Source: Escherichia coli (lineage in GTDB: Bacteria; Pseudomonadota; Gammaproteobacteria; Enterobacterales; Enterobacteriaceae). Taken from it: a stretch of 11,220 nucleotides of DNA. The notes under the pieces are model-generated. The model ran no database searches, was not told the DNA's origin, and saw nothing but the letters and a program-made list of their open reading frames with translations. The position numbers and the translations under genes were made by a program. The stretch is from the NCBI RefSeq assembly GCF_003334765.1, contig NZ_QOWT01000057.1. One strand, 5' to 3'. Below are positions 10,561 through 10,645 of this stretch, in pieces. Every line of letters begins with the position of its first letter. Within the stretch, counting starts at the first letter, position 1.

Positions 10561-10592
10561 GAAGGCGCTACCCGGTTTAAGGACGCGCCTTC
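10561..10592 (-). promoter_or_regulatory. Stem-loop in the 5' leader of the PTS gene (8-bp perfect arms, 16-nt loop)
   Basis: GAAGGCGC (10561-10568) / GCGCCTTC (10585-10592). Located between an AT-rich promoter-like stretch (10593-10645) and the RBS/ATG at 10532-10550. No U-tract follows on the minus strand. Confidence 0.4.
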
Positions 10593-10645
10593 ATATTTGT
10601 GAGACTTATAATTATTTTGAAATATTGAGGTAATACGCTGTTGGA

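Follow-up and report, generated by a model that had tools for sequence, protein, structure and literature searches.

The locus considered here raises the question of whether the GC-rich inverted repeat in the untranslated spacer before a malX-like PTS IIBC gene of Escherichia coli is a functional element and, if so, whether it acts as DNA or as RNA. The repeat lies on the minus strand at 10561..10592 of the window, that is, the whole stretch of 11,220 nucleotides that was analyzed. The 5′ arm GAAGGCGC (10592-10585) and the 3′ arm GCGCCTTC (10568-10561) pair over 8 bp without a mismatch and enclose a 16-nt loop, exactly as an earlier note on this DNA had described. Three more base pairs between CCU (10582-10580) and GGG (10573-10571) bring the loop down to six nucleotides, UAAACC. 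The stem is separated by 28 nt from the start codon ATG (10532-10530) and by 16 nt, rather than the 11 nt given in that note, from the Shine-Dalgarno (SD) sequence GAGGAG (10539..10544, minus strand), of which GGA is invariant in the orthologues. Folding of the leader, which the note had proposed as a check, gave a local hairpin of −17.9 kcal/mol with z = −3.26, and none of 200 shuffles was equally stable; the fold of the whole 126-nt leader has z = −1.48, which is not significant alone. A perfect GC-rich inverted repeat of 8 bp with a loop of 3-20 nt arises in 0.12% of the dinucleotide shuffles of the 113-nt leader. A five-codon mini-ORF within the stem (ATG AAG GCG CGT CCT TAA) was considered and set aside; it has no SD sequence, and its ATG is ACG in three lineages.

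The window represents an accessory island of E. coli. Based on 921 bases around the finding and on E. coli chromosomes, the full stretch is present in 312 of 5426 complete genomes. The 113-nt spacer is confined to these 312 island genomes with one copy per genome (median 1 place), and the plasmid collection contributed just two E. coli records, which added no diversity. The island comprises, in this order, agaR, PkbaZ, a kbaZ'-'kbaY fusion remnant, the 113-nt spacer, the malX-like PTS IIBC gene, a MalY/PatB-like gene, and a 629-aa gene. In RefSeq, one island genome is annotated with agaR, two 'class II fructose-bisphosphate aldolase' fragments, 'malX', a MalY/PatB-family gene, a 629-aa hypothetical gene, and IS66/IS21 remnants; the annotation of a second island genome was also inspected. 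Its structure is mosaic, with remnants and IS fragments. All of the features described below are located on the minus strand. The agaR-kbaZ control region (11051..11220) contains PkbaZ, AgaR operator motifs, and a CRP-like site and is about 98% identical to its K-12 counterpart; the AgaR operators in this region presumably have the role that they have in the K-12 aga regulon. The fusion remnant (10646..10984) consists of 25 kbaZ codons fused to an Enterobacter-like kbaY segment that encodes the C-terminal third, with NCBIfam recognizing KbaZ N-terminal and KbaY C-terminal pieces, and its TGA stop codon is found at 10648-10646, where the earlier note had placed it. The malX-like gene (8962..10532) is frameshifted here through A7 (10525-10519) in place of A8, with an open frame again from 10467. 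NCBIfam assigns its product to the MalX-type PTS IIBC family; the transporter is 53% identical to K-12 MalX and is, judged from the protein sequence, a paralogue of K-12 MalX and not MalX itself. The second gene of the module (7775..8953) is annotated as a MalY/PatB-family gene and assigned by NCBIfam to the PatB-type C-S lyases, and the third (5872..7761, 629 aa per RefSeq) has no Pfam or NCBIfam family. A primer sequence for the ExPEC 'malX PAI marker' has no match in the window, a result without bearing on the hairpin.

Homology between the island and the K-12 aga locus ends at the 3′ end of kbaY. Together with the K-12-like control region, this boundary marks the island as a chimera, in which an E. 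coli-type agaR-PkbaZ segment is joined via a deletion to an Enterobacter-type 'kbaY-malX-like segment. Two possible connections with the K-12 locus were rejected. The spacer is not part of the native kbaY-agaB spacer because K-12 homology ends at the kbaY 3′ end and the leader is confined to island genomes. The reverse idea, that a hairpin in the K-12 kbaY-agaB spacer is a remnant of the island element, was dropped, as the alignment was unconvincing.

Related loci were collected by a transporter-protein scan with one genome per species, which yielded 28 loci. Enterobacter, Citrobacter, Kluyvera, Yokenella, Morganella, and Aeromonas carry the malX-like/malY-like pair immediately 3′ of agaS-kbaY, which is intact there. 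Escherichia sp. MOD1-EC7003 and one Enterobacteriaceae isolate have the pair between kbaY and agaBCD, and in Hafnia it stands alone after xseA, without kbaY. A canonical terminator closes the module before agaB in Escherichia sp. MOD1-EC7003, which is consistent with a self-contained module. The gene neighborhoods point to a module (malX-like, malY-like, with or without the 629-aa gene) that is embedded in, or attached to, the GalNAc/GalN (aga) clusters of Enterobacterales. By its gene context, the apparent PTS leader is an operon-internal spacer that runs from kbaY to the malX-like gene elsewhere and from the remnant to the malX-like gene here, a junction of a widespread and unstudied malX-like/malY-like module within GalNAc utilization clusters. 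About 6% of E. coli genomes have this module transplanted behind an AgaR-controlled promoter that is intact. A search of the literature on the malX-like module, and with the RefSeq protein accessions, found nothing specific.

The position of the hairpin in these loci follows the downstream gene. It lies 28-44 nt from the malX-like ATG and 16-25 nt from the SD sequence, its distance to the kbaY stop codon is variable, and in Hafnia it is retained beside the malX-like gene though kbaY is absent. The steady distance to the ATG and the retention in Hafnia assign the hairpin to the control region of the downstream gene. No hairpin is found at the homologous place in Morganella and Aeromonas.

Evidence on the nature of the repeat comes from the alignment of 23 orthologous leaders. 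In addition to E. coli, a hairpin is present at the same place in all 22 other aligned leaders (Enterobacter, Citrobacter, Kluyvera, Yokenella, Hafnia, an Escherichia sp., and metagenomes), and the arm sequences are swapped wholesale among lineages with pairing retained. The stem is GAAGGCGCG/CGCGCCTTC in Enterobacter, Yokenella, and E. coli, GAAGGTGCG in Citrobacter and isolate 89, GAAGGAGCG/CGCTCCTTC as well as GAAGCAGCG/CGCGGCTTC in metagenome contigs, GGCAAGGCATTC/GAATGCCTCGCC in RIT691, AAGGTCATGA/TCATGACCTT in Kluyvera and the Escherichia sp., and CGTCATTCAT/ATGATGACG in Hafnia, and the orthologue stems comprise 10-14 pairs. RNAalifold recovered the hairpin from a structure-blind MAFFT alignment of 17 leaders with nine of ten pairs compensated, and a count on the named structure found double changes in 11 of 12 pairs. 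When the outer eight pairs were followed through the 23 leaders, seven were compensated and 88% of the cells were paired. Controls with slid partners were 34-54% paired, and 0 of 500 shuffles reached the observed values, a comparison that overstates the significance because the sequences are related. Further compensations occur in the metagenome sequences L036, L038, and L041. Conservation of the stem in homologous loci, on which the earlier note had made its reading depend, is therefore accompanied by abundant compensatory change, and the changes fall in independent lineages, as is generally the case for conserved structured RNAs. Without selection for pairing, the existence of at least seven distinct stem types would be difficult to account for, and the inverted repeat is very probably a selected RNA stem-loop. 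What began as an observation on a single sequence is now an RNA element with phylogenetic support.

The covariation also bears on the view that the repeat has no function and is either a decaying relic of an old aga operon terminator or a chance palindrome in an AT-rich spacer. The U-tract that follows the stem is degenerate, the downstream gene is frameshifted in the window, and remnants and IS fragments surround it, all of which would suit a relic. Relics, however, gain no compensatory changes, and the compensation of seven of the eight outer pairs across at least seven stem types, together with a chance probability of about 0.001 in the leader, makes a functionless repeat very unlikely. Within E. 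coli, the stem is intact in all 313 records, and its sole variation is a G·U variant, which results from a C to T change in the stem of a second allele, found in about half of the island genomes.

Positions that deviate from Watson-Crick pairing provide information on the nucleic acid in which the stem acts. They are mostly G·U on the sense strand, with about ten G·U as against three or four A·C events. The inner stem GUCC/GGGU of E. coli differs from GUCC/GGAC of Enterobacter by two wobble-preserving transitions, and isolate 89, Kluyvera genomosp. 1, and the Escherichia sp. have one U·G each. This sense-strand excess is suggestive of RNA, though not decisive, and a comparison of sense and antisense folding energies as a strand test had a mixed outcome. 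A protein operator in DNA, one of the options in the earlier note, would require a dimeric factor to bind a palindrome that brackets the −35 of an internal promoter. The native malX gene of E. coli offers a precedent, with a MalI operator and a CRP-dependent promoter. The two loci share a paralogous gene pair, a palindrome after a CCTCAC-like box, which at native malX is the operator, and a similar SD context, CGAGGAGT. In addition, the best promoter candidate has its −35-like hexamer at the center of the palindrome considered here, and a GATAAAA(A/C)ATTATC palindrome is found near the Hafnia hairpin. The native palindrome GATAAAACGTTTTATC, however, is a sequence-conserved protein site beside malI, whereas here the arms vary and no malI-like gene is adjacent, and the −10 is about −54 from the ATG at native malX as against about −27 here. 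The arms differ completely among lineages with their complementarity retained, the conserved AAGG and CCTT ends are spaced by 18, 20, or 22 nt, and the contiguous stems of 10-13 bp in the orthologues are typical of RNA. A G·U excess on one strand is also unexpected for duplex DNA. No candidate regulator gene, LacI-type or other, is present beside the module in the E. coli, Hafnia, and Kluyvera loci checked, and the only nearby regulator in E. coli is agaR, which belongs to the DeoR family with direct-repeat operators. Neither the conserved half-sites and spacing nor the adjacent cognate regulator that characterize LacI/MalI-type operators are found, and the wholesale arm swaps, the variable AAGG/CCTT spacing, the contiguity of the stems, and the lack of an adjacent regulator together render a DNA operator improbable. 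An AgaR operator in the spacer was also considered and rejected, as inspection by eye revealed no TTTCRTTTY-type motif.

For a stem-loop that acts in RNA, the start of the transcript determines whether the hairpin can form. Promoter-like signals were scored in bits with a sigma-70 weight matrix against shuffles of the leader, and a separate sigma-70 scan was performed. The candidate sigma70 promoter of the earlier note, TTTCAA-18-AAATAT (10593..10622, minus strand), has its hexamers where they had been reported, TTTCAA at 10622-10617 and AAATAT at 10598-10593 with an 18-nt spacer, but its standing as a promoter is poor. Each hexamer matches the consensus at three of six positions, the scan does not call the site, and its score of 2.3 bits is at the chance level, with a better site in 99.9% of the leader shuffles. 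The AAATAT hexamer is not conserved either, being AAAAAC, AACTAT, or ATTTTG in orthologues. It ends one base before the stem, and a start about 7 nt downstream would therefore fall inside the 5′ arm, so that the hairpin could not form. A second upstream candidate, TTACCT-17-TATAAG, reaches 5.5 bits and was rejected; it has no T at −7, and its −10 varies among lineages (AATAAG, TCTAAA, ACTTAC, CCTTAG). No conserved −10 exists upstream of the stem within the spacer in the 23 aligned leaders.

Beyond the stem, the SD sequence, and the start codon, the invariant columns of the 23 leaders are an A-rich tract, a T-C-N-C-A box, and T-A-N3-T. The last is represented in E. coli by TATCCT (10552..10557, minus strand), a −10-like motif that begins 4 nt 3′ of the stem. 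All 23 leaders share T-A-N3-T, which corresponds to the three best-conserved positions of the sigma-70 −10 (T−12, A−11, T−7); as far as can be judged from these leaders, it is the only conserved promoter-like signal. A weak −35-like hexamer, TTAAAC (10575..10580, minus strand), is found within the hairpin loop, and exactly 17 nt separate it from TATCCT downstream. The loop motif is TTAAnn in most lineages and is lost in some Kluyvera and metagenome sequences. The pair formed by the loop −35 and the TATCCT-type motif is the top sigma-70 site in the upstream 170 nt in nine of the 18 lineages scanned, and in E. coli TTAAAC-17-TATCCT scores 7.2 bits, a value that is reached by 30% of shuffles and is not significant singly. 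The pair appears to be a weak internal sigma-70 promoter for the module. Its predicted start at about 10545 would give a 5′ UTR of about 13-20 nt with the SD sequence at the extreme 5′ end. If T-A-N3-T is used as a −10, the start lies downstream of the hairpin, and the malX-like gene's own transcript would not contain it.

These observations weigh on the possibility that the hairpin protects a 5′ end. In this case, RNase E would cut in the A/U-rich tract, or transcription would start near the conserved box, and the stem would shield the malX-like mRNA from 5′-end-dependent decay, in line with the 5′ stabilizing hairpin suggested by the earlier note. The anchoring of the hairpin to the downstream gene at 16-25 nt from the SD sequence, the A/U-rich single-stranded tract and invariant box just 5′ of the stem, the location of the Hafnia hairpin in a probable 5′ UTR, and the covariation and G·U bias expected of a sense-strand RNA are all in agreement with such a role. 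The ompA 5′ UTR is the known example of a 5′-terminal stabilizer hairpin and likewise has its stem-loop shortly before an SD sequence, but it needs the stem within a few nucleotides of the RNA 5′ end, and here no conserved promoter or known processing site is suitably placed. A functional −10 at T-A-N3-T would, moreover, leave the gene's own transcript without the hairpin. A 5′ stabilizing role is possible only for transcripts that start further upstream, and protection of the 5′ end is a rather doubtful explanation of the element.

Since no conserved −10 lies upstream of the stem in the spacer, RNA that carries the hairpin must start further up. In the E. coli island, the probable source of such transcripts is PkbaZ, with transcription across the kbaZ'-'kbaY remnant. 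The agaS-kbaY operon is the putative source in Enterobacter, Citrobacter, Kluyvera, and Yokenella. In Hafnia, the putative source is the region upstream of the pair, which contains several AgaR-like operator motifs. This region also has, about 75 nt upstream of the hairpin, a CRP-like site, TGTGATCCTCCGTGCA, whose center is 29.5 bp upstream of the first base of a TTTAAT hexamer, an arrangement with class II geometry. AgaR-type transcription thus plausibly passes the stem-loop before it reaches the malX-like gene in every lineage.

What the hairpin does in such read-through transcripts depends in part on whether it can terminate them. The G+C content, the 8 + 3 pairs, and the short loop are those of an intrinsic-terminator stem (G+C-rich, about 5-14 bp). 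The tail CAUUAUCC, by contrast, does not contain the U-tract of a terminator (at least about five U in 8 nt, starting 0-2 nt from the stem), and 10561-10592 is not flagged by the terminator scan, in agreement with the earlier note, in which the missing U-run had already made an intrinsic terminator seem unlikely. The sequence that follows the stem, CAUUAUCCU, makes a poor U-tract and includes an invariant A. With a d'Aubenton-Carafa-type discriminant, all 23 hairpins fall below 0 (−0.1 to −41), as compared with +47 for the control terminator of Morganella kbaY and +26 for the one after malY-like in the Escherichia sp. The homologue of Hafnia paralvei is the sole one that passes the simple terminator scan. 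Efficient intrinsic termination at the hairpin is unlikely in view of the poor U-tract and the negative discriminant in all 23 sequences; weak or factor-assisted termination would be compatible with the same sequences.

The reading that we tentatively prefer, with less than even confidence, is that selection maintains the stem-loop in the untranslated spacer immediately upstream of the malX-like gene as a boundary element, which shares its DNA with a weak internal promoter. The hairpin would form in AgaR-controlled read-through transcripts begun further upstream and would act as a weak, leaky terminator, as an mRNA decay barrier, or as both, thereby setting the share of upstream aga transcription or mRNA that reaches the malX-like genes. 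In the same DNA, the loop would supply the −35 and the sequence just past the stem the −10 TATCCT, with the 3′ arm between them serving as the 17-bp spacer, so that the stem would be written into the sequence-free parts of the promoter, namely the spacer and the upstream flank. In Morganella, a canonical terminator after kbaY is followed by GTAACA-17-TATAAA at the place where the loop and post-stem motifs lie elsewhere, which by analogy would be the same stop-then-restart logic built from separate parts. If the preferred reading holds, the locus offers a compact example of a hairpin accommodated where a promoter sets no demands on sequence; if not, the stem-loop is of an ordinary intergenic kind.

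Several known systems resemble the proposed boundary element in part. Intrinsic terminators and leaky attenuators share with it the GC-rich stem of 8-13 bp, the untranslated spacer between same-strand genes, and compensatory change, and the similarity extends to the Hafnia paralvei homologue identified by the scan and to the true terminator at the same junction in Morganella. The hairpin here nevertheless differs from intrinsic terminators in having no U-run and in being placed relative to the downstream start codon rather than the upstream stop codon. Intercistronic stem-loops that stabilize mRNA, among them the malE-malF REP hairpins and the hairpins of the puf operon, are also stable, devoid of a U-tract, and located inside a polycistronic transcript, and in both situations the flanking genes may plausibly be expressed at different levels. 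Unlike REP/BIME elements, which exist in many copies with a shared consensus, the element here is single-copy, without the REP consensus, and restricted to island genomes. Moreover, 3′-end protectors follow the upstream gene, whereas this hairpin travels with the downstream gene.

The C/U-rich box on the 5′ side of the stem opens a further possibility. In E. coli it reads TCTCACA (10598..10604, minus strand), its T-C-N-C-A is nearly invariant, and it lies 5 nt 5′ of the stem. The box (CCUCG / UCUCA) could pair with the SD sequence (CGAGG), enclosing the hairpin and sequestering the ribosome binding site, and a helix of this kind around the hairpin appears in the minimum free energy folds of six of the 18 hairpin-bearing leaders. 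Only one of its five pairs covaries, however, and the 79% of cells that are paired owe this mostly to invariance, any C/U-rich box being trivially complementary to an SD sequence. The helix is absent from the E. coli fold, and the second E. coli allele breaks it by a T to C change in the box. Translational control through this pairing is therefore highly improbable. Use of the TCACA box as part of a CRP site was also rejected, since the left half-site is absent in all lineages.

Structured RNAs in the leaders of PTS transporter genes are known in another form, the RAT/terminator antitermination elements of BglG/SacY-controlled PTS operons. The present stem-loop, in contrast, has neither a terminator that overlaps it nor, in the window and in related loci, an antiterminator gene beside it, and the Rfam 15 covariance models gave no match overlapping 10533-10645, even at E-values up to 10. 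With no Rfam match and no literature found on the element, the stem-loop is undescribed, yet of a familiar intergenic class. It is conceivable, but unlikely, that the stem-loop, the 5′ TCNCA box, and the 3′ UAnnnU form a dedicated cis-regulatory RNA of Enterobacterales that is so far undescribed. Such an RNA would be a regulated attenuator or a protein-binding switch and would gate aga read-through into the malX-like module, with a signal other than AgaR as its cue. Under the preferred reading of the stem-loop as a boundary element, the conserved TCNCA box is given no account. The points of interest at this locus are this invariant box and the tight overlap of the stem-loop with the invariant −10-like motif.

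The island segment at window 10646-11220, which carries the kbaZ'-'kbaY fusion remnant, is chimeric as judged by comparison of its sequence with that of the K-12 locus (L002). The agaR-kbaZ intergenic region of the island is about 98% identical to that of K-12; the 'kbaY piece has a DNA sequence clearly diverged from that of K-12 kbaY, and the malX-like transporter shares 96% identity with proteins of Enterobacter. The kbaZ'/'kbaY junction itself is marked by an inverted duplication of 14-18 bp (window 10904-10951), GCGGGCAAAACAAA...TTTGTTTTGCCCGC, the second copy of which consists of kbaZ codons in reverse complement and meets kbaY at a GTGCTG microhomology. 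This arrangement has the appearance of a scar left behind by a template-switch or snap-back deletion. The inverted duplication also produces spurious miRNA-like Rfam matches at the junction.

In the GalNAc/GalN (aga) clusters of Enterobacterales and Aeromonas (L005-L031), the malX-like/malY-like pair lies directly 3' of kbaY. The pair is found between kbaY and agaB in Escherichia sp. MOD1-EC7003, where a canonical terminator is present at its end. The proteins encoded on a metagenome-assembled contig labelled 'Collinsella sp.' (L004, JAIJJM010000184.1) share 99-100% identity with their counterparts in the E. coli island; the contig probably comes from E. coli and was mis-binned.

Conservation of the leader extends 5' of the hairpin, where two minus-strand elements, a T-C-N-C-A box (window 10598-10604) and an A-rich tract (window 10605-10622), show little or no variation across all 23 aligned leaders. 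Models of a CRP site, an AgaR site and an anti-SD sequence were considered for the box and tract, and none fits. A perfect TATAAT is also present antisense to the leader (window 10607-10612, plus strand), without a usable -35 element; elsewhere in Enterobacteriaceae it reads TATAGT, TAGAAT, TATTGT, or TAAGTT, and it may be a chance occurrence in AT-rich DNA.

The stand-alone Hafnia module is preceded by several AgaR-like operator motifs (L026 4780-4870 and the equivalent region of L027). A CRP-like site, TGTGATCCTCCGTGCA, located about 75 nt upstream of the Hafnia hairpin, has class II geometry relative to a TTTAAT hexamer, with its centre 29.5 bp upstream of the first base of the hexamer, and a palindrome resembling the MalI operator, GATAAAA(A/C)ATTATC, lies between the conserved box and the hairpin. 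The K-12 kbaY-agaB spacer (L002 7030-7060) contains a 10-bp hairpin that lacks a U-run, ACUUCCCGAU-UAAU-AUCGGGGAGU, and its comparison with the malX-like leader hairpin did not establish homology.

Downstream of the leader, the malX-like gene is frameshifted in the window because codons 3-5 contain a run of seven A residues (window 10519-10525, minus strand) where eight are usual. A8 is present in 311 of 313 E. coli records, and A7 is common only to the window and NZ_CM129860.1 among them; the run is A9 in contig L004, and other genera have CAGGAAAAG at this position, with no homopolymer tract. Either the tract is prone to slippage or the A7 run is a sequencing error in a homopolymer.

The third gene of the module, encoding 629 aa (window 5872-7761, minus strand; 14461-16350 in L001), had no match in Pfam or NCBIfam and is named 'hypothetical' in one RefSeq genome and 'alpha-galactosidase' in another. 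It is found alongside the module in Enterobacter, Yokenella, isolate 89, and Aeromonas sobria. On its 3' side (window about 5790-5852, minus strand), a REP-like palindrome, CCGGGTAAGGCGCAAGCGCCACCCGG, is followed by the hairpin GCAGGGG-CTTATTC-CCCCTGC with a TTTT tail, which probably constitutes the end of the operon.
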